A stretch of 64,000 nt of DNA from Escherichia coli (lineage in GTDB: Bacteria > Pseudomonadota > Gammaproteobacteria > Enterobacterales > Enterobacteriaceae). The notes beneath the pieces are model-generated. The model searched no databases. It worked only from the letters and a program-made list of their open reading frames with translations, and was not told the DNA's origin. The position numbers and the translations under genes were made by a program. The DNA lies in NCBI RefSeq assembly GCF_041248615.1, contig NZ_CP158426.1. One strand, 5' to 3'. This document shows, piece by piece, positions 1,356 through 12,000 of this stretch; positions within the stretch are counted from its first letter, which is position 1; every line of letters starts with the position of its first letter.

Positions 1356-2264
1356 CTAATTCTGCTGTAAAAAGTGCAGAAACTGACTTAAAGCATAAGA
1401 AGGCGTTTCGTTATTGCGCCAGAACACACCGACGCTGCCTTTCTGTTCTATCTTTGGCAGGTTGAGGATCACCAGTTGTCCCTGGCTGGCATAACGTTGC
1501 GCCAGGCGTAATGACAAAATAGAGATCATATCGCTGCTTTGTAACAGGTTGGTACTGACGTTCATCGACGCCGACTCAATCGTGTTTTCTGGCAGCATCA
1601 CGCCGTGGTCTACCAGCGCATTATCAATACTGATGCGAATGGGGGTACCTGTCGGCCAGACTATCCACCGCCAGTTAGCAAGATCATTCCAACTGAGGGT
1701 GGCGTATTTCGCCAGTGGATGCTCAGCACGGGCGACAAAACACACCGGCTCGGTGTAGAGCACCTTATAATTCAGTGGCAGCTGCAAGGCGCGACCGCCA
1801 ATTCGCCCAACGACCACGTCGACAGAACCTGCCAACAGATCTTGCAGCAATGGGGTCATAACCTTCTCTTCAATATTCAGGTGTAGAGTTGGCATCTCCT
1901 TGAGCAAATGCAAAATCGCCTGGGATACGCAGTCAGTGGCGACGGGAGAACAGCCAATTTTCAGACTGCCGACCAGCCCACCTTGTTTAAAACGGGCCAG
2001 TTCATGTTGCGAGCGCTCCATGTCATTGATTAACCGCTGGGCATGTTGCAATAACAATCTACCGCCTTCGGTAGGGCGTAACCCTTTGCTGTGCCGCTCA
2101 AAGAGTGTGAGGCCGATCTCATCTTCGAGTTGTGACAACCATTTCGACAGCGCAGGCTGGGTGATATTCATCATCCGCGCGACATGGGTCAGATTGCCCT
2201 GTTCACCCAGCGCCACCAGCATTTGCAGGTGATGAAGCTTTAGTTTCTGCGCCCAGTTTGCCAT
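1356..2264 (-). CDS. mhbR: LysR-family transcriptional regulator, divergent from the catabolic operon (MhbR-like)
   Basis: N-terminal HTH (LKLHHLQMLVALGEQGNLTHVARMMNITQPALSKWL) followed by a LysR substrate-binding domain; divergent to the transporter gene; start set at Met17 of the ORF. Confidence 0.75.
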   Translation of the reverse strand: MANWAQKLKLHHLQMLVALGEQGNLTHVARMMNITQPALSKWLSQLEDEIGLTLFERHSKGLRPTEGGRLLLQHAQRLINDMERSQHELARFKQGGLVGSLKIGCSPVATDCVSQAILHLLKEMPTLHLNIEEKVMTPLLQDLLAGSVDVVVGRIGGRALQLPLNYKVLYTEPVCFVARAEHPLAKYATLSWNDLANWRWIVWPTGTPIRISIDNALVDHGVMLPENTIESASMNVSTNLLQSSDMISILSLRLAQRYASQGQLVILNLPKIEQKGSVGVFWRNNETPSYALSQFLHFLQQN

Positions 2265-2390
2265 TTGCCATAACCTCCAGGTTATCTCTCTGCCCGAAAT
2301 GCCATTGTACATTTCATCTCTTTAATCACAATATCGCAACATACATAAAACAAAAGAAACATCTACCTTACCTGCACTGAGGCATTTACT

Positions 2391-3749
2391 ATGACTCAAC
2401 GACGTGATTTACAAGCACTGATCGATGCTGCTCCGGTCGGCAAGATGCAGTGGCGCGTTATCATCTGCTGTTTTCTGGTGGTAATGCTCGATGGTTTAGA
2501 CACCGCGGCTATCGGCTTTATCGCCCCTGATATTCGCACTCACTGGCAACTCACCGCAGGCGATCTCGCCCCGCTTTTTGGCGCGGGTCTGCTGGGGTTA
2601 ACCGCAGGCGCACTGCTTTGTGGTCCGTTGTCCGATCGCTTTGGCCGCAAACGGGTGATTGAGCTGTGCGTCTTTTTGTTTGGCGCGTTAAGCCTCGCCT
2701 CGGCTTTCTCACCGGATCTGCAAACGCTGGTATTCCTGCGTTTCCTCACCGGCCTTGGGCTGGGTGGCGCGATGCCAAACACAATTACCATGACCTCGGA
2801 ATATCTGCCTGCCCGCCGCCGCGGCGCGCTGGTGACGCTGATGTTTTGCGGCTTTACCCTGGGTTCGGCGTTTGGCGGGATTGTCAGCGCGCAGCTGGTG
2901 CCGGTGATTGGCTGGCACGGGATCCTGGTGTTGGGTGGCGTATTACCGCTGATGCTGTTTGTTGCACTGCTGGTGGTTCTGCCGGAATCGCCACGCTGGC
3001 AAGTGCGCCGCCAGCTACCCCGGGCGGTGATTGCGAAAACCGTCAGCGCCATCACCCGCGAGCGTTATGTCGATACCCACTTTTATCTCATTGAATCAGC
3101 CTCCGTTACAAAAGGCAGCATTCGTCAACTGTTTATGGGGCGTCAGTTACCCATCACGTTGATGCTGTGGGTGGTGTTCTTTATGAGCTTGCTGATTATT
3201 TACCTGCTCTCAAGCTGGATGCCAACGCTGCTCAACCATCGCGGCATCGACCTGCAACATGCCTCCTGGGTTACCGCCGCGTTCCAGATTGGCGGTACGT
3301 TGGGCGCGCTGGCGCTGGGCGTGCTGATGGATAAGTTCAATCCTTTCCGCGTACTGGCGCTGAGCTATGCCATAGGCGCTGTATGCATCGTGATGATTGG
3401 CTTAAGCCAGGACGGATTATGGCTAATGGCGCTGGCGATTTTCGGCACCGGCATTGGCATCAGCGGATCGCAGGTGGGGCTGAATGCGCTGACCGCAACA
3501 CTTTATCCAACACAAAGTCGCGCCACGGGCGTGAGCTGGTCAAACGCCGTGGGCCGCTGCGGCGCGATTGTTGGCTCGCTGTCTGGCGGCGTGATGATGG
3601 CGATGAATTTCTCTTTCGACACCCTGTTTTTCATTATCGCTGTGCCCGCGGCGATCAGTGCGGTGATGTTAACCCTGCTGATCACCGTGGTTCGCCAGTC
3701 GACCTCTGTCCCTGACTCACTGCCTCACGCAGGTGTTGTGAACGAATAA
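2391..3749 (+). CDS. mhbT: MFS aromatic-acid transporter (3-hydroxybenzoate/gentisate type)
   Basis: 452 aa, about 12 TM segments, MFS signature motifs (GRKR after TM2); first gene of the catabolic operon. Confidence 0.8.
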
Positions 3750-3760
3750 GGAGCATCCCA

Positions 3761-4789
3761 ATGACTGATAACAATCAAAATAGCCGCGAGCAATTTTATC
3801 AGCATATTTCCGGGCAAAACCTGACCCCGCTGTGGGAGTCACTGCACCATCTGGTGCCAAAAACGCCCAACGCTAACTGTGCGCCAGCGTACTGGAATTA
3901 TCAGGAGATCCGCCCGCTGCTGCTGGAGAGCGGCAGCCTGATTGGCGCGAAAGAAGCCGTGCGCCGCGTGCTGGTGCTGGAAAACCCGGCGCTGCGCGGG
4001 CAGTCTTCCATCACCGCGACTTTATATGCCGGTTTGCAACTGATCATGCCGGGCGAAGTGGCACCGAGTCATCGCCATAACCAGTCGGCGCTGCGTTTTA
4101 TTGTTGAAGGTAAAGGGGCATTCACCGCCGTTGATGGCGAACGCACGCCAATGAATGAGGGCGATTTTATCCTGACTCCGCAGTGGCGCTGGCACGATCA
4201 CGGTAACCCTGGCGACGAACCGGTTATCTGGCTCGATGGGCTGGATCTGCCATTAGTGAACACTCTGGGCTGCGGTTTTGCCGAAGATTACCCGGAGGAG
4301 CAACAACCAGTAACGCGTAAAGAGGGCGATTACCTGCCGCGTTACGCTGCCAATATGTTGCCGCTGCGCCATCAGACCGGGAACTCCTCGCCCATCTTTA
4401 ACTACCGTTATGACCGTAGCCGCGAAGTGCTACACGATTTAACCCGCCTGGGCGATGCCGATGAGTGGGATGGCTACAAAATGCGCTACGTCAACCCGGT
4501 CACCGGTGGCTATCCGATGCCGTCGATGGGCGCTTTCCTGCAACTGCTGCCGAAAGGGTTTGCCTCACGCGTGGCGCGTACCACTGACAGCACCATCTAC
4601 CATGTAGTGGAAGGTAGCGGGCAGGTCACTATCGGCAATGAAACCTTCAGCTTTAGTGCAAAAGATATCTTCGTGGTGCCGACCTGGCACGGCGTGTCGT
4701 TCCAGACCACGCAAGATACCGTTTTATTTAGTTTTTCGGACAGACCGGTACAAGAAGCCCTGGGGCTGTTCCGCGAAGCGCGTTATTAA
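3761..4789 (+). CDS. mhbD: gentisate 1,2-dioxygenase (bicupin)
   Basis: 342 aa; cupin metal-binding His motifs ([11 protein letters not shown]...WHDHGN); operon context with fumarylpyruvate hydrolase and maleylpyruvate isomerase. Confidence 0.85.
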
Positions 4790-4804
4790 TTTGGGAGAGA
4801 GAAA

Positions 4805-5506
4805 ATGACTCAATACGTATTCGAACCACAAGCGCCCGTTACCGTACCGGTTGTTGGCAGTGATGAACAATTCCCCGTACGCCGCGTTTACTGCGTCGGA
4901 CGTAACTATGCCGCCCACGCCCGCGAAATGGGCTTTGATCCGGATCGTGAACCGCCATTCTTCTTCTGCAAACCGGCGGATGCCGTTGTTCCGGTTGCCG
5001 CTGGCGAAACGCTGGCGCTGCCGTATCCGGCGCAGACCGATAACTACCATTATGAAATTGAACTGGTGGTGGCGATTGGTAAAAAAGGCAGTGATATCCC
5101 GCTGGAAAACGCCCATGAATATGTCTGGGGTTATGCCACGGGTCTTGATATGACTCGCCGTGACCGTCAAATGGAAATGCGCCAGATGGGCCGCCCGTGG
5201 GAAATCGGCAAAGCGTTCGATCTCTCGGCCCCCATCGCGCCGCTGCACAAAGCCAGCGAAACTGGCGGTATTGATAACGCACCTATCTGGTTACAGGTTA
5301 ACGGCGAAGATCATCAGCGCAGCGATATTCGTCATCTCATCTGGTCAGTGAATGAAACCATCAGCTACCTGTCAGGCTTCTTTGAACTGCAACCGGGCGA
5401 TCTAATCTTTACCGGTACGCCGGAAGGGGTTGGCCCAGTAGTCAAAGGTGATGTGATCACGGGCAACGTCGAGGGCTTAACGCCTATCGCGGTGAAGATT
5501 GTCTGA
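4805..5506 (+). CDS. mhbH: fumarylpyruvate hydrolase (FAH family)
   Basis: 233 aa FAH-fold protein ([16 protein letters not shown]...GTPEGVG); position in gentisate operon. Confidence 0.8.
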
Positions 5507-5513
5507 GGTGATG

Positions 5514-6158
5514 ATGAAGCTGTACAGTTTTTTTAATAGTTCAGCGTCTTACCGGGTGCGCATTGCGCTGGCGCTGAAGGGTATCGATTACCAGACCGAA
5601 GGGGTGAATATCCGCATTGGTCAGCAAAACGAACTGGCCTACCGGCGGATGAATCCGGTCGGGCTGGTGCCGACGCTGCTGACCGACGAGGGCGAATCAC
5701 TCGGACAATCGCTGGCGATTATTGACTGGCTGGAGAGTCACTACCCGCAAGTTCCGCTGATGCCGCAGGAAGAACCGGCCCGCAACAAGGTGCTGGAAAT
5801 TGTCTATGCCATCGCCTGCGATATTCATCCATTGAATAACCTACGCGTGCTGCGCTACCTGACCGAAGAGCTGAACGTCAGTGAAGAAGATAAAAAACGC
5901 TGGTATGCGCACTGGATCCAGCAAGGGTTAAGCGCGGTGGAACAGCTACTGCGCCAGAGCCAGTCGGGGCAATTTTGTGTGGGCGAGACGCCGACGCTGG
6001 CAGATTGCTGCCTTGTTCCACAGTGGGCGAACGCGCTACGTATGAACTGCGATCTGAGCGGGTATCCGCGCTGCAAAGCGGTGTACGACGCCTGCACGCA
6101 GCTGCCAGCGTTCATTGCCGCAGCGCCAGAAAATCAACAAGATAAAATTTCAGCCTGA
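5514..6158 (+). CDS. mhbI: maleylpyruvate isomerase (glutathione S-transferase zeta-like)
   Basis: GST N-terminal thioredoxin-like fold (MKLYSFFNSSASYRVRIALALKGIDY); ORF begins at 5499 and overlaps the preceding gene, so start set at MKLYSF. Confidence 0.8.
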   Translation: MKLYSFFNSSASYRVRIALALKGIDYQTEGVNIRIGQQNELAYRRMNPVGLVPTLLTDEGESLGQSLAIIDWLESHYPQVPLMPQEEPARNKVLEIVYAIACDIHPLNNLRVLRYLTEELNVSEEDKKRWYAHWIQQGLSAVEQLLRQSQSGQFCVGETPTLADCCLVPQWANALRMNCDLSGYPRCKAVYDACTQLPAFIAAAPENQQDKISA

Positions 6159-6172
6159 CCAGGAGAACCATA

Positions 6173-7366
6173 ATGACTAAAGTGACACGCGCAGTAATTG
6201 TGGGAGGCGGGATCGGCGGTGCGGCAACTGCGTTGTCACTGGCCCGCCAGGGGATCAAAGTGGTGCTGCTGGAAAAGGCGCATGAGATCGGTGAGATTGG
6301 CGCAGGTATCCAGTTGGGGCCAAATGCGTTTTCGGCGTTGGATAGCCTCGGCGTCGGCGAAATCGCCCGCCAGCGCGCGGTATTCACCGATCACATCACC
6401 ATGATGGATGCGGTAAACGCCGAAGAAGTGGTGCGCATTGAAACCGGTCAGGCCTTTCGCGATCATTTCGGCGGCCCTTACGCGGTGATCCACCGGGTTG
6501 ATATTCACGCCTCGGTGTGGGAAGCGGTACTGACGCATCCGGACGTGGAATATCACACCTCCACCAACGTCGTGGATATTCGCGAGACAGAAGACGATGT
6601 CACCGTTTTCGACGATCGCGGCAATAGTTGGATCGGCGATATTCTGATTGGCTGTGACGGCGTGAAGTCAGTGGTGCGCCAGAGCTTATTGGGCGATGCG
6701 CCGCGTGTCACCGGGCATGTGGTCTACCGTGCGGTTATCGATTGTGCCGATATGCCGGAAGATTTGCGCATTAACGCACCAGTATTGTGGGCGGGGCCGT
6801 GCTGTCACTTGGTGCATTACCCTTTACGCGGCGGCAAGCAGTATAACCTGGTGGTGACATTCCACAGCCGCCAGCAGGAAGAGTGGGGCGTGAAGGATGG
6901 CAGTAAAGAGGAAGTGCTCTCTTACTTTGAAGGGATTCACCCCCGTCCGCGCCAGATGCTGGATAAACCGACCTCCTGGCGACGCTGGTCAACCGCCGAC
7001 CGTGAACCGGTAGCGAAGTGGGGAACGAAGCGCATTACGCTGGTGGGCGATGCGGCCCATCCGGTGGCGCAGTATATGGCGCAGGGTGCCTGTATGGCGC
7101 TGGAAGACGCGGTAACACTGGGTAAGGCGCTGGCGCAGTGTGAGGGTGATGCGGCACAAGCCTTTGCGCTGTATGAGTCGGTACGTATTCCGCGCACCGC
7201 GCGCATCGTCTGGTCGACCCGTGAAATGGGGCGGGTTTATCATGCCGCAGGAGTAGAGCGCCAGGTACGTAACCTGCTGTGGAAAGGGAAATCGCAGGCA
7301 GAGTTTTACCGCGGCATGGAGTGGCTGTACGGCTGGAAAGAAGATAACTGTTTGCAACCACGCTGA
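6173..7366 (+). CDS. mhbM: 3-hydroxybenzoate 6-hydroxylase (FAD-dependent monooxygenase)
   Basis: 397 aa; FAD-binding GxGxxG ([14 protein letters not shown]) and DG / GD flavoprotein monooxygenase motifs (GCDGVKS, GDAAH). Confidence 0.85.
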
Positions 7367-7427: not shown

Positions 7428-8375
7428 ATGCGTGTGTTACTGGCACCGATGGAGGGAGTGCTTGACTCTCTGGTGCGTGAATTGCTGACCGAAGTTAACG
7501 ACTACGATCTGTGCATCACCGAGTTTGTCCGCGTGGTGGATCAACTGCTGCCGTTAAAAGTCTTTCATCGCATTTGCCCTGAGCTACAAAACGCCAGCCG
7601 GACACCATCTGGTACGCTGGTGCGCGTGCAGTTGTTAGGTCAGTTCCCACAATGGCTGGCAGAGAACGCCGCCCGTGCGGTGGAGTTAGGTTCCTGGGGC
7701 GTGGATCTCAATTGCGGCTGCCCGTCGAAAACGGTCAACGGTAGCGGTGGTGGGGCGACGTTACTCAAAGATCCTGAACTCATCTACCAGGGTGCAAAAG
7801 CGATGCGTGAAGCTGTACCGGCGCATTTGCCCGTCAGCGTGAAAGTGCGTCTGGGCTGGGACAGCGGTGAGAAGAAATTTGAAATCGCCGATGCGGTTCA
7901 ACAGGCTGGTGCTACGGAGCTGGTGGTGCATGGACGGACAAAAGAGCAGGGTTACCGCGCGGAGCATATTGACTGGCAGGCGATTGGCGAGATTCGCCAG
8001 CGGCTGAATATTCCGGTGATTGCCAACGGTGAAATCTGGGACTGGCAGAGTGCGCAACAATGTATGGCGATCAGCGGCTGCGACGCAGTGATGATTGGTC
8101 GCGGGGCGCTCAATATTCCCAACCTGAGCCGGGTGGTAAAATATAACGAACCGCGAATGCCGTGGCCGGAGGTGGTTGCTTTGCTGCAAAAATATACCCG
8201 TCTGGAAAAGCAGGGCGATACCGGGTTATATCACGTTGCGCGGATTAAACAGTGGTTGAGTTATTTGCGTAAAGAATACGATGAAGCAACGGAATTATTT
8301 CAGCATGTTCGGGTGTTGAATAATTCCCCTGATATTGCAAGGGCTATTCAGGCAATTGATATCGAGAAACTCTAA
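7428..8375 (+). CDS. dusC: tRNA-dihydrouridine(16) synthase C
   Basis: ORF 7380-8375; start set at [13 protein letters not shown] giving 315 aa; Dus TIM-barrel motifs; matches recalled DusC. Confidence 0.9.
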
Positions 8376-8416
8376 AAAACCATAGTGATGTTTTTTGACA
8401 ATGTGTTAGCTCTTTA

Positions 8417-8677
8417 TCAATAGGCCGCACGGTTGTTTGGTGGCGTCAAAATTGCCGAGGCGTTCCCTGAAGGCCGGGGCAGCCCACATGGATGTGGGCT
8501 GAGGGCGCGTTTTACAGGGATGTTACCTCGCGCCCGACCCGGTAGCCGTAAGGGATAAGCCGAGGGCACCGCGCAGCGGCGATTTTGTTCGCCAGAGCCC
8601 GGGGGTGCAGGGGGCGGCGGCGATTGGCCGCCCCCTGCGCGCTCCTTGCGCCAGTGATTATATGAAGCAATACACAT
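8417..8677. repeat. GC-rich palindromic intergenic element (not classic REP consensus)
   Basis: about 260 bp of very high GC with several perfect hairpins (CAGCCCACAT/ATGTGGGCTG; GCAGGGGGCGGC/GCCGCCCCCTGC); the 86-aa ORF on the minus strand is low-complexity Pro/Gly/Arg-rich and is probably not coding. Confidence 0.45.
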
Positions 8678-8747
8678 GACAGGAGCGCAACAGGATGAGA
8701 GACTGAAATATTCTCGTTATTTTCGGACCTGATGACATTAATTAATT

Positions 8748-8831
8748 TTAAAATATCATCTTAAATACGCCAGTCACCACCAGTAGCCCAATCAGGAAAA
8801 TAATCAATACAGCCCAGAGTATAATTTTCAT
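8748..8831 (-). CDS. yohP: 27-aa small membrane protein
   Basis: manual translation of the minus strand gives MKIILWAVLIIFLIGLLVVTGVFKMIF, identical to recalled YohP; below the ORF-track size cutoff. Confidence 0.85.
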   Translation of the reverse strand: MKIILWAVLIIFLIGLLVVTGVFKMIF

Positions 8832-9054
8832 TGGCGTTCCTTTATTTGTGAGTGCTGAATAAGTATAGGAAAAAACGAAGCCCTTTGCCGTTATCCATAA
8901 ACGATTAAGATAAATCGGAAGATATCATTCACTTAGTGTATATTTTTCTGGATATGTCGTTTTATTGCTACTGATGTATTGCCACGCGAAACTAAAAAAT
9001 ATATCGCAACACACGGTAATCTCCGCGCACCTTTTCTTACCTGATTATTCCCCC

Positions 9055-10491
9055 ATGAATCGTGATTCCTTTTATCCCGCCATCGCCTGTTTTCCGCTGT
9101 TACTGATGCTGGCCGGGTGTGCGCCTATGCATGAAACCCGCCAGGCGTTAAGCCAGCAAACGCCCGCTGCACAAGTTGACACCGCATTACCCACGGCGCT
9201 GAAAAATGGTTGGCCAGACAGCCAATGGTGGCTGGAGTATCACGATAATCAACTCACTTCCTTAATTAACAATGCACTACAGAACGCACCGGATATGCAG
9301 GTGGCTGAACAGCGCATTCAGCTAGCTGAAGCCCAGGCGAAGGCAATTGCTACTCAGGATGGTCCGCAGATCGACTTTTCTGCGGATATGGAGCGGCAAA
9401 AAATGTCGGCAGAAGGCTTAATGGGGCCGTTTGCTCTGAACGATCCGGCCGCAGGTACGACCGGTCCGTGGTACACCAACGGTACTTTTGGCTTAACGGT
9501 GGGCTGGCATCTCGATATCTGGGGAAAGAATCGGGCGGAGGTAACTGCTCGCCTGGGTACGGTTAAAGCACGAGCGGCGGAACGCGAGCAAACCCGCCAA
9601 TTGCTGGCTGGCAGCGTAGCCCGCCTGTACTGGGAGTGGCAGACCCAGGCGGCGTTAAACACGGTCTTGCAGCAAATCGAAAAAGAGCAGAACACTATTA
9701 TCGCGACCGATCGCCAGCTATATCAGAACGGGATTACTTCTTCAGTTGAAGGTGTGGAAACCGATATTAATGCCAGCAAAACCCGGCAGCAGCTCGACGA
9801 TGTCGCGGGGAAAATGAAAATTATTGAGGCACGGTTAAGCGCACTTACAAATCACCAGACAAAGGCATTGAAGCTTAATCCGGTCGCGTTGCCGAAAGTG
9901 GCAAGCCAGCTTCCTGATGAACTGGGGTACTCCTTACTGGCGCGGCGGGCAGATTTGCAGGCGGCGCACTGGTACGTTGAGTCATCGTTAAGCACTATTG
10001 ATGCGGCAAAAGCGGCATTTTATCCTGACATCAACCTGATGGCCTTCCTGCAACAGGATGCGTTGCACTTAAGCGATCTGTTCCGTCATTCCGCGCAGCA
10101 AATGGGCGTTACGGCAGGCCTGACGCTACCCATTTTCGATAGTGGTCGTCTTAACGCCAACCTCGATATCGCAAAAGCCGAAAGCAACTTGTCTATCGCC
10201 AGCTACAACAAAGCGGTGGTTGAAGCGGTGAATGACGTGGCGCGGGCAGCCAGTCAGGTTCAGACACTGGCGGAGAAAAACCAGCATCAGGCGCAAATTG
10301 AGCGCGATGCCTTGCGTGTAGTAGGTCTTGCGCAGGCGCGCTTTAACGCGGGCATCATTGCGGGTTCCCGCGTCAGCGAAGCCAGAATCCCCGCGCTGCG
10401 TGAGCGGGCCAATGGCCTGTTATTGCAAGGGCAGTGGCTGGATGCCTCCATTCAACTCACTGGTGCGTTGGGCGGGGGTTACAAACGTTGA
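9055..10491 (+). CDS. mdtQ: outer-membrane efflux lipoprotein (OMF/NodT family)
   Basis: ORF 8965-10491; start set at MNRDSF..., giving a lipobox LLMLAGC and 478 aa; OMF coiled-coil / beta-barrel architecture; intact single ORF. Confidence 0.8.
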   Translation: MNRDSFYPAIACFPLLLMLAGCAPMHETRQALSQQTPAAQVDTALPTALKNGWPDSQWWLEYHDNQLTSLINNALQNAPDMQVAEQRIQLAEAQAKAIATQDGPQIDFSADMERQKMSAEGLMGPFALNDPAAGTTGPWYTNGTFGLTVGWHLDIWGKNRAEVTARLGTVKARAAEREQTRQLLAGSVARLYWEWQTQAALNTVLQQIEKEQNTIIATDRQLYQNGITSSVEGVETDINASKTRQQLDDVAGKMKIIEARLSALTNHQTKALKLNPVALPKVASQLPDELGYSLLARRADLQAAHWYVESSLSTIDAAKAAFYPDINLMAFLQQDALHLSDLFRHSAQQMGVTAGLTLPIFDSGRLNANLDIAKAESNLSIASYNKAVVEAVNDVARAASQVQTLAEKNQHQAQIERDALRVVGLAQARFNAGIIAGSRVSEARIPALRERANGLLLQGQWLDASIQLTGALGGGYKR

Positions 10492-10543
10492 TGATATGCG
10501 CCTTCTATACTTAACGTTTATTCAGCGTTATGTGGAGAACTCG

Positions 10544-11305
10544 ATGGCACAGGTCGCGATTATTACCGCCTCCGATTCGGGGATCGGCAAAGAGTGCGCG
10601 TTATTACTGGCGCAGCAGGGGTTTGATATTGGTATTACCTGGCACTCTGATGAAGAAGGGGCAAAAGATACCGCGCGTGAGGTGGTTAGCCACGGCGTAC
10701 GTGCGGAGATCGTGCAGCTGGATCTCGGCAATCTACCAGAAGGGGCACTGGCGCTGGAGAAACTCATTCAACGGCTGGGGCGTATTGATGTGCTGGTGAA
10801 TAATGCGGGCGCAATGACCAAAGCGCCGTTTCTTGATATGGCTTTCGATGAGTGGCGCAAGATTTTTACCGTTGATGTCGATGGTGCATTTTTATGCTCG
10901 CAAATTGCTGCCCGCCAGATGGTGAAACAAGGGCAGGGTGGTCGCATCATCAACATTACGTCGGTGCATGAACATACGCCGTTGCCGGATGCCAGCGCTT
11001 ACACAGCCGCTAAACATGCGCTCGGTGGGTTAACTAAAGCGATGGCGCTGGAGCTGGTCAGGCATAAGATTTTGGTGAACGCAGTCGCACCTGGGGCGAT
11101 CGCCACGCCAATGAATGGCATGGATGACGGGGATGTGAAGCCCGATGCGGAGCCTTCGATTCCCTTGCGGCGTTTTGGCGCAACGCATGAGATTGCCAGC
11201 CTGGTGGTGTGGCTTTGTTCGGAGGGCGCAAATTACACCACTGGGCAGTCGTTGATAGTGGATGGCGGCTTTATGCTGGCGAATCCGCAGTTCAACCCAG
11301 AATAG
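10544..11305 (+). CDS. yohF: short-chain dehydrogenase/reductase
   Basis: start set at MAQVAIITASDSGIGKE (Rossmann TGxxxGxG), 253 aa; catalytic YxxxK (YTAAK). Confidence 0.85.
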   Translation: MAQVAIITASDSGIGKECALLLAQQGFDIGITWHSDEEGAKDTAREVVSHGVRAEIVQLDLGNLPEGALALEKLIQRLGRIDVLVNNAGAMTKAPFLDMAFDEWRKIFTVDVDGAFLCSQIAARQMVKQGQGGRIINITSVHEHTPLPDASAYTAAKHALGGLTKAMALELVRHKILVNAVAPGAIATPMNGMDDGDVKPDAEPSIPLRRFGATHEIASLVVWLCSEGANYTTGQSLIVDGGFMLANPQFNPE

Positions 11306-11334
11306 CGCAGTGAGGTGCGTGGATATTTCAATGG

Positions 11335-11420
11335 GTTAGGCCAGATAAGACACCAGCGTCGCATCAGGCATGGAACACCCGGTGCCGGATGTGGCGTGAA
11401 TGCTTATCTGTGGCAACTGC
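11335..11420. repeat. pair of REP elements (BIME-like) between convergent yohF and yohD
   Basis: one copy is the reverse complement of TGCCTGATGCGACGCTGGTGTCTTATCTGGCC; a second REP-like copy GCCGGATGTGGCGTGAATGCTTATCTGTGGC in opposite orientation. Confidence 0.7.
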
Positions 11421-11421
11421 T

Positions 11422-12000
11422 TTACGCCTGATTATCCGGCTTTTTCTTCCCGCGTCGTTTCAGCCACCAGCGCACGCCTACCACCAGAACCACGACCAGA
11501 ATCAACCAGACCCAGTGTTTCAAATGCTGGTCGAGATTGTGCAACCACGGCGCAATCACCTGACCACCAGCGTAACCGATAGTTGTAAAAATCAACGCCC
11601 AGGCAAATGCGCCAAGGATATTCAGTGGCAGAAAGATTTTCGGCGGCAGCTGGCTGGCACCAATCAGCGTCGGGCCAATCACCCGAAAGCCATACATAAA
11701 ACGCGTACCAATGACAAACAGATACGGATGGCGTTGGATCAGTTTCTGCGCCCGCTCAATTTTATCCTGATGCTTAGAGAAACGGCGTAATAGCTTGCCG
11801 CCAAACCGCCGCCCGCACAGATAAAGCACCTGGTCGCCAATCATGCCGCCAAGCGCCACAGAAAGTACCACCAGCGGGAACTTTAATAGCCCCTGATGTG
11901 CTGCAACGCCTCCCAGCAAAGTCACGGTTTCACCTTCCGCCAGGCTACCGATCACCAGCGCGGCATAACCATATTGTGAGATGAGTGTATTGAGATCCAT
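11422..12000 (-). CDS. yohD: DedA-family inner membrane protein
   Basis: 192 aa, DedA/SNARE-associated hydrophobic profile; matches recalled YohD. Confidence 0.85.
   Translation of the reverse strand: MDLNTLISQYGYAALVIGSLAEGETVTLLGGVAAHQGLLKFPLVVLSVALGGMIGDQVLYLCGRRFGGKLLRRFSKHQDKIERAQKLIQRHPYLFVIGTRFMYGFRVIGPTLIGASQLPPKIFLPLNILGAFAWALIFTTIGYAGGQVIAPWLHNLDQHLKHWVWLILVVVLVVGVRWWLKRRGKKKPDNQA

Follow-up and report, generated by a model that had tools for sequence, protein, structure and literature searches.

The window, by which we mean the whole 64,000-nucleotide stretch of Escherichia coli DNA analysed here, carries mdtQ (yohG) in the gene order dusC, yohP, mdtQ, yohF, yohD, yohC, pbpG. The same order is found in K-12 and in a twin of the window genome, E. 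coli isolate 362 (NZ_OW967178.1), which is 100% identical over the 1701-nt mdtQ region. The mdtQ coding sequence occupies positions 9055..10491 on the plus strand, from an ATG at 9055 to a TGA stop at 10489–10491 (478 codons and the stop), and is assigned to an OMF lipoprotein from this open reading frame, from profile matches and from the annotation of the identical genome. An earlier note on this DNA had called a single 478-codon frame here, and its coordinates and length agree with both the ORF call and the RefSeq start. Upstream and divergent lies yohP (8748..8831, minus strand), a gene for a small membrane protein, placed from the annotation of the identical genome and arranged in the same way in K-12. 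Downstream, after a gap of 52 nt and on the same strand, yohF (10544..11305, plus strand, from the same annotation) has its own Shine-Dalgarno sequence and encodes an SDR-family oxidoreductase, not a pump component. A DedA protein gene, yohD, is also part of the neighbourhood.

The mdtQ frame remains open upstream of the ATG as far as a TTG at 8965, and some records annotate the resulting 508-aa form. We rejected this longer form, as the aligned orthologues from other genera start at Met-Asn-Arg (MNR) and as its signal peptide would end up 30 residues inside the protein. The MNR start is common to 14/14 orthologues with a full-length start in an alignment of E. albertii, Salmonella and Citrobacter, and ATG 9055 is the RefSeq start in the isolate 362 genome. 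The N-terminus that follows from it, MNRDSFYPAIACFPLLLMLAGCAPMHE, includes the motif LLMLAGC, and codons 1–22 (9055..9120, plus strand) are predicted from the translation to encode a lipoprotein signal peptide with the lipobox L19-A20-G21-C22 and Ala23 at position +2. This lipobox had previously been read as intact, and the translation bears that out. Cys22 is invariant in 127 homologues, and the tetrad G21-C22-A23-P24 is invariant among the MdtQ orthologues aligned.

Against the NCBIfam model NF008524, the MdtQ equivalog, the protein scores 1019 bits (cut-off 650) over residues 1–478 of 478. It also passes TIGR01845, the NodT/OprM-type OMF lipoprotein subfamily, with 274 bits (cut-off 210), and contains two tandem repeats of Pfam OEP (PF02321, 108 bits). 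Its scores on the NCBIfam models for MdtP, CusC-type proteins, AdeK/AdeC and TolC fall below every cut-off. The two family models, the paired OEP repeats and the synteny together bear out the earlier assignment of mdtQ to an outer-membrane efflux lipoprotein; we count it among the four TolC-like outer-membrane factors (OMFs) of the species. The genes beside mdtQ are yohP, yohF and yohD, none of which encodes an adaptor or an inner-membrane pump, and a 2025 review likewise describes the gene as encoded independently (PMC11762307). Because no such partner is adjacent, assembly into a tripartite pump is something that we infer. TolC, too, is encoded apart from its pumps, and the solitary position of mdtQ therefore does not exclude a tripartite mechanism.

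Structural prediction with AF2 from 16 close orthologues, a shallow alignment, returned an unusable model (pLDDT 39.6), and an alignment of 127 diverse homologues returned one with pLDDT 89.7 and pTM 0.85. This confident model predicts a canonical OMF protomer of the VceC/OprM/CusC fold. It places strands at residues 105–116, 139–153, 325–336 and 348–357, long helices at 158–224, 230–265, 365–431 and 437–471, and tight turns at 225–229 (N-G-I-T-S) and 432–436 (A-G-I-I-A) that bear the conserved glycines G226 and G433. A Foldseek search against the PDB placed OMFs at the top (VceC, CmeC, CusC, OprJ, OprN, OprM, SilC, TOprJ1 and MtrE), with E-values of 1e-21 to 3e-24 and TM scores of 0.76–0.89, followed by TolC at about 1e-14.

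The earlier note had taken mdtQ of K-12 MG1655 to be annotated as a pseudogene, and this is correct: b2139 (mdtQ) is annotated as 'pseudogene' with a length of 1436 nt, and the alignment agrees. The mdtQ copy of K-12 ER3413, annotated as 'frameshifted', is identical in sequence to that of MG1655. Pairwise alignment of the window to K-12 mdtQ, a comparison that had been proposed for locating the damage, revealed a single lesion, in which one A is lost from a run of five at 9202..9206 (plus strand; four in K-12). The run lies in codons K50 (AAA) and N51 (AAT), within the context CTG AAA AAT GGT, or L49 K50 N51 G52. This 1-bp deletion is the only indel that separates the window from either MG1655 b2139 or ER3413. 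The alignment to K-12 mdtQ holds 25 differences in total; the 24 substitutions divide into 18 synonymous and 6 non-synonymous changes (I98V, V149A, D248N, H267N, A271S and N275K, window to K-12). Over the locus the nucleotide identity is 98.4%, and the flanking genes are identical.

The consequence of the deletion is that the frame of the K-12 start codon is cut short by a stop once 69 codons have been read; the other 428 codons lie out of that frame and have neither a start nor a signal peptide. The K-12 gene (b2139; formerly yohG/yohH, b2138-b2139) is thus an orthologous locus that is frameshifted, whereas the window gene is in frame. We considered rescue of the K-12 A4 run by programmed -1 frameshifting or transcriptional slippage and rejected it, since the run is too short and a slippery heptamer is absent. 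Translated in the A5 frame, the lesion site encodes ALKNGWPDSQWW, which is invariant across genera in the orthologue alignment, and the surrounding peptide A48–W59 does not vary among the four genera aligned. This invariance indicates that the A5 frame is the ancestral state. With the missing base restored, K-12 mdtQ differs from that of BL21 by one synonymous and no non-synonymous changes, indicating that the K-12 frameshift is recent and has been followed by no further decay.

The frequency of the intact state was assessed from exact-match counts of short queries at the lesion site and from a sample of annotated records. A search of 5426 complete E. coli genomes recovered the 1701-nt mdtQ region at 95–100% identity in 5421, and in 5407 with at least 80% query coverage. 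Exact matches to an 81-nt query with the A5 run at its centre were found in 3046 genomes, and the 81-nt length was kept in 19 other full-coverage rows sampled that were not of K-12 type, so that these differ only by SNPs; two K-12-type rows measured 80 nt. By contrast, the 80-mer carrying the K-12 A4 run was exact in 355 records, and among the matches listed 60/60 were K-12 laboratory derivatives, including MG1655, DH5alpha, DH1, C600, J53, NCM3722, RR1 and HST04. A sample spread over the matches gave the same picture for the whole region: 36/36 full-length non-K-12 rows span 1701 nt, and three K-12-type rows span 1700.

Annotated records agree with these counts. Six non-K-12 genomes picked across the identity range (O157:H7 SS17, UPEC BH100N, APEC MS1170, MRSN346647, BL21 and the river isolate AVS0935) all carry a 1437-nt mdtQ CDS free of a pseudogene flag. 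The exact window protein, which is that of isolate 362 (WP_024190061.1), occurs on 470 public contigs under the name MdtQ. The review describes mdtQ as conserved in the core genome despite its pseudogene label (PMC11762307). K-12 is therefore the exception and intact mdtQ is normal in almost all E. coli, as databases and the same review already document, and the earlier hint that this strain is exceptional in retaining the gene does not hold: the genome counts and annotations make the intact gene the norm of the species and K-12 the outlier. We put the probability at roughly 0.9 that the ORF is an ordinary wild-type mdtQ (yohG) allele encoding a NodT/OprM-type OMF lipoprotein, with the K-12 pseudogene a peculiarity of that laboratory lineage.

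Loss of mdtQ has occurred outside K-12 as well. A few of the 5426 complete E. coli genomes, for example H40, are without the mdtQ region, and in-frame internal deletions in other E. coli give forms of 435, 454 and 420 aa, the first of which is missing residues 243–285 and is found on 43 contigs. Independent truncations have been reported in Salmonella Typhi and Paratyphi A (PMC9241588). Taken with the K-12 frameshift, these deletions, truncations and absences clearly mark mdtQ as dispensable in some lineages or settings.

Where it is kept, mdtQ is under purifying selection. Across 28 pairs drawn from eight E. coli alleles the Nei-Gojobori dN/dS is 0.07, with 0.06–0.12 for pairs that include the window allele, and full-length orthologues of 478–479 aa are found in E. 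albertii (94% identity), Salmonella (81%) and Citrobacter (79–81%).

The region directly 5' of the start codon is a pyrimidine-rich leader (8970..9054, plus strand) that lacks a Shine-Dalgarno sequence, as judged from anti-SD energies and an alignment of upstream sequences. No anti-Shine-Dalgarno pairing was found in the 25 nt before ATG 9055 (CCTTTTCTTACCTGATTATTCCCCC), and the best anti-SD duplex of mdtQ reaches +0.6 kcal/mol, compared with -6.4 for yohF and -6.8 for dusC. The last 85 nt upstream of mdtQ are identical in 8/8 E. coli compared, which makes the SD-less start a property of the species and not of this strain. A consensus scan of 8350–11450 detected no sigma-70 consensus in the yohP–mdtQ spacer and no terminator-like site between mdtQ and yohF; because the scan matched no more than shuffled sequence, it says nothing on expression. 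An Rfam scan of 8000–11500 found no riboswitch or leader RNA upstream of mdtQ, the sub-threshold matches (TwoAYGGAY, 30.9 bits against 43, and naRNA4, 41 against 59.5) lying outside the gene.

These features raise the question of whether the ORF, though intact, might be cryptic, that is, translated hardly or not at all, in which case an intact frame would not equate to a working channel in this strain. Such a reading draws on the missing SD pairing (against about -6.5 kcal/mol in the neighbouring genes), on the absence of a promoter-like site from the spacer, and on the review's statement that the mdtQ promoter is without experimental confirmation (PMC11762307), and the repeated loss of the gene, seen in several lineages, suggests that it adds little to fitness. 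We nevertheless judge it unlikely. A dN/dS of 0.07 and conservation at full length in four genera require the protein to be produced, and to be under selection, in some conditions, and a perfectly conserved leader suggests function and not decay. In addition, the Salmonella orthologue is transcribed and is induced by hypochlorite (1.6 log2; PMC9065344). As far as sequence can indicate, the SD-less leader combined with the low dN/dS makes it more likely that the gene is expressed weakly or conditionally than not at all.

We then turn to the substitutions of the window allele itself, which differs from seven other E. coli alleles at 3–11 amino acids. At two positions that are nearly invariant among close orthologues the window stands alone. 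Codon 149 (9499..9501, plus strand) encodes Val, where the other E. coli, Salmonella and Citrobacter compared have Ala, and codon 248 (9796..9798, plus strand) encodes Asp, where the other orthologues have Asn. This isolation would be the basis for a disguised pseudogene, inactivated by the private missense changes A149V in strand S2 and N248D in helix H4. Both changes are conservative, though, and in 123 distant homologues (25–59% identity) column 149 holds F/A/G/L/I/V and column 248 holds A/E/V/L/S/I, so that Val is itself seen at the first and an acidic Glu at the second. The two columns being variable at this distance, we judge V149 and D248 benign. In the AF2 model V149 falls in the predicted barrel strand S2 (139–153) and D248 in the predicted helix H4 (230–265), about 18 residues above the periplasmic tip, which puts neither at the tip constriction.

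The remainder of the protein gives no further support to inactivation. Taking as conserved those columns with at least 80% agreement in the distant homologues, the window keeps 57 of 61, including the helical-tip glycines G226 and G433. The four exceptions (L222, N266, Q333 and A354) are the same in three close orthologues, those of E. albertii, Salmonella and Citrobacter, with L222, N266 and Q333 invariant in all 16 sequences of the close-orthologue alignment; they are therefore features of the MdtQ clade and not lesions of this allele. Every invariant family residue is present, the AF2 model folds confidently, and the identical protein on 470 contigs points to a stable lineage allele. Inactivation by missense changes thus appears very improbable, and no hidden damage is apparent in the window allele at the level of sequence and model. 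The earlier note had named two findings that would count against its proposal, an intact K-12 gene and inactivating substitutions in conserved channel residues; we checked for both and found the K-12 copy broken and no allele-specific change at family-conserved positions. That the intact frame is an assembly artefact, a homopolymer miscount hiding a frameshift as in K-12, has in its favour that the difference sits in a homopolymer, where sequencing errors are classically found, and is highly improbable given the exact A5 81-mer in 3046 genomes, the same length in 19 further non-K-12-type rows, the invariance of ALKNGWPDSQWW across genera and the restriction of A4, among the matches listed, to K-12 derivatives.

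On the preferred reading of an ordinary wild-type allele, the mechanism can be sketched from the better-known relatives. We infer lipidation, trimerisation and channel function for MdtQ by analogy with the family members OprM, CusC, VceC and TolC. Sec would export the precursor, Cys22 would be lipidated and the protein would then be sorted to the outer membrane in a Lol-dependent manner, as the Ala at +2 would permit. Three protomers would together form a beta-barrel of 12 strands continued by a long periplasmic alpha-helical tunnel, and the tip, formed by the glycine-containing turns at 225–229 and 432–436, would dock tip-to-tip onto the hairpin of a periplasmic adaptor belonging to an inner-membrane pump encoded elsewhere. 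Opening of the tunnel would then allow small toxic molecules delivered by the inner-membrane transporter to be expelled.

[quoted passage not shown] The strain background used for 'mdtQ null mutant' phenotypes needs checking: if the deletion was made in K-12, one would have to explain how removing an already frameshifted gene gives a phenotype. The frameshift also means that work on MdtQ function is better done in a non-K-12 strain, such as the window strain, BL21 or O157:H7. As a speculation from the sequence, and a long shot, the leader might be a post-transcriptional switch, for example through stress-dependent initiation mediated by S1 or an sRNA, which would make MdtQ a conditional alternative exit duct. 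If this were true, the absence of MdtQ from the model strain K-12 would explain why the role has gone unnoticed. The putative switch could possibly be coordinated with the divergent, stress-induced yohP.

Compared with known systems, the window gene has its nearest counterparts in the species itself. MdtQ of other E. coli (for example O157:H7, UniProt Q8X659) corresponds to the window gene in identity, locus and length, and WP_024190061.1 from isolate 362 is identical to the window protein at 100%. Against the other E. coli MdtQ alleles compared, the window differs by the private conservative residues V149 and D248 and in nothing of substance. As an intact gene annotated MdtQ in thousands of genomes, with an NCBIfam equivalog of its own, it carries little weight as a discovery.

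Among paralogues, the closest NCBIfam model is that of MdtP (YjcP, of the mdtNOP operon), NF007390, which MdtQ matches with an E-value of 1.8e-104 and 350 bits; the cut-off is 597, so that MdtQ is not MdtP. Both proteins are poorly characterised. According to the review they have the same reported null-mutant phenotype, and mdtP shares its operon with genes for an adaptor and a pump of MFS type whereas mdtQ is solitary (PMC11762307). The closest solved structure by sequence is VceC of Vibrio cholerae (PDB 1yc9; E 1.2e-39 over residues 51–477), the OMF of the VceAB pump. It is also the closest by the predicted MdtQ fold, with an E-value of 2.8e-24, a TM score of 0.88 and about 26% identity. VceC is a lipoprotein OMF with a strand and helix layout like that predicted for MdtQ; it is encoded together with its pump, whereas mdtQ stands alone. 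TolC (PDB 1ek9) has the same overall architecture as the MdtQ model (Foldseek E 3e-14, TM about 0.7) but shares only 12–13% identity with it, and MdtQ reaches 56.8 bits on the TolC subfamily model TIGR01844 against a cut-off of 225. TolC is a non-lipoprotein of a different subfamily.

The mdtQ-region allele of this strain is uncommon among complete E. coli genomes. When we searched with the 1701 nt spanning window 8900-10600, only 2 of the 5421 matching records reached at least 99% identity, the remainder falling between 95 and 99%. The best match, at 100% identity over that region, was a Madrid hospital isolate, 362 (NZ_OW967178.1), whose annotated gene coordinates equal those of the window across its first 9.6 kb.

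Elsewhere in the species the protein is found in shortened forms. We identified in-frame internal deletions of MdtQ in some E. coli, yielding proteins of 435, 454 and 420 amino acids (P0013, P0004 and P0024), of which the 435-residue form lacks residues 243-285 and is carried on 43 contigs, the longest being 4.8 Mb. The deletions would take out parts of long helices, and these forms look like independent inactivations. Annotation pipelines give them no pseudogene flag.

Comparison with the wider outer-membrane factor (OMF) family revealed that the MdtQ orthologues compared, from E. coli, E. albertii, Salmonella and Citrobacter, differ from the family consensus at four columns, with leucine for arginine at 222, asparagine for glycine at 266, glutamine for glycine at 333, and alanine or glycine for proline at 354. 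These columns are 80-93% conserved among distant homologues, and part of the departure may reflect a local shift in the alignment. As cited in reviews, Sulavik 2001 reported raised drug susceptibility for "mdtQ null mutants in E. coli" (PMC11762307); if the strain was K-12, the deleted gene was already frameshifted and this phenotype would be puzzling.

Upstream of the start codon, the mdtQ leader (window 8970-9054) is rich in pyrimidines and contains no Shine-Dalgarno sequence, and its final 85 nt show no differences among the E. coli compared (8 of 8). These features may be a sign of unusual translational control.

The stretch at window 8417-8677, between dusC and yohP, is repeat-like and high in G+C; it produces a spurious proline/glycine-rich ORF of 86 aa on the minus strand and overlaps a sub-threshold Rfam match to TwoAYGGAY (window 8433-8584; 30.9 bits against 43). 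A TRIP1c repeat, a site of chromosomal rearrangement, has been described between yohI (dusC) and yohG (PMC10888264), and the stretch corresponds to it in position. In the yohF-yohD intergenic region, the Rfam family naRNA4 matched both strands at window 11339-11441, likewise below threshold (41.1 bits, where the gathering score is 59.5), and this element is probably a palindrome of the REP/BIME type.

A 3-hydroxybenzoate/gentisate catabolic island occupies window 1356-7366. It encodes a LysR regulator on the minus strand, together with mhbT, gtdA, a FAH-family hydrolase, maiA and a 3-hydroxybenzoate 6-monooxygenase. Among 5426 complete E. coli genomes, 613 carry the island, with 26 locations on plasmids; only 71 records reach an identity of 99% or more. 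Its carriers include O157:H7, at approximately 95.6% identity. In K-12, by contrast, yohJ directly adjoins dusC and the island is absent, whereas here it lies between these two genes.
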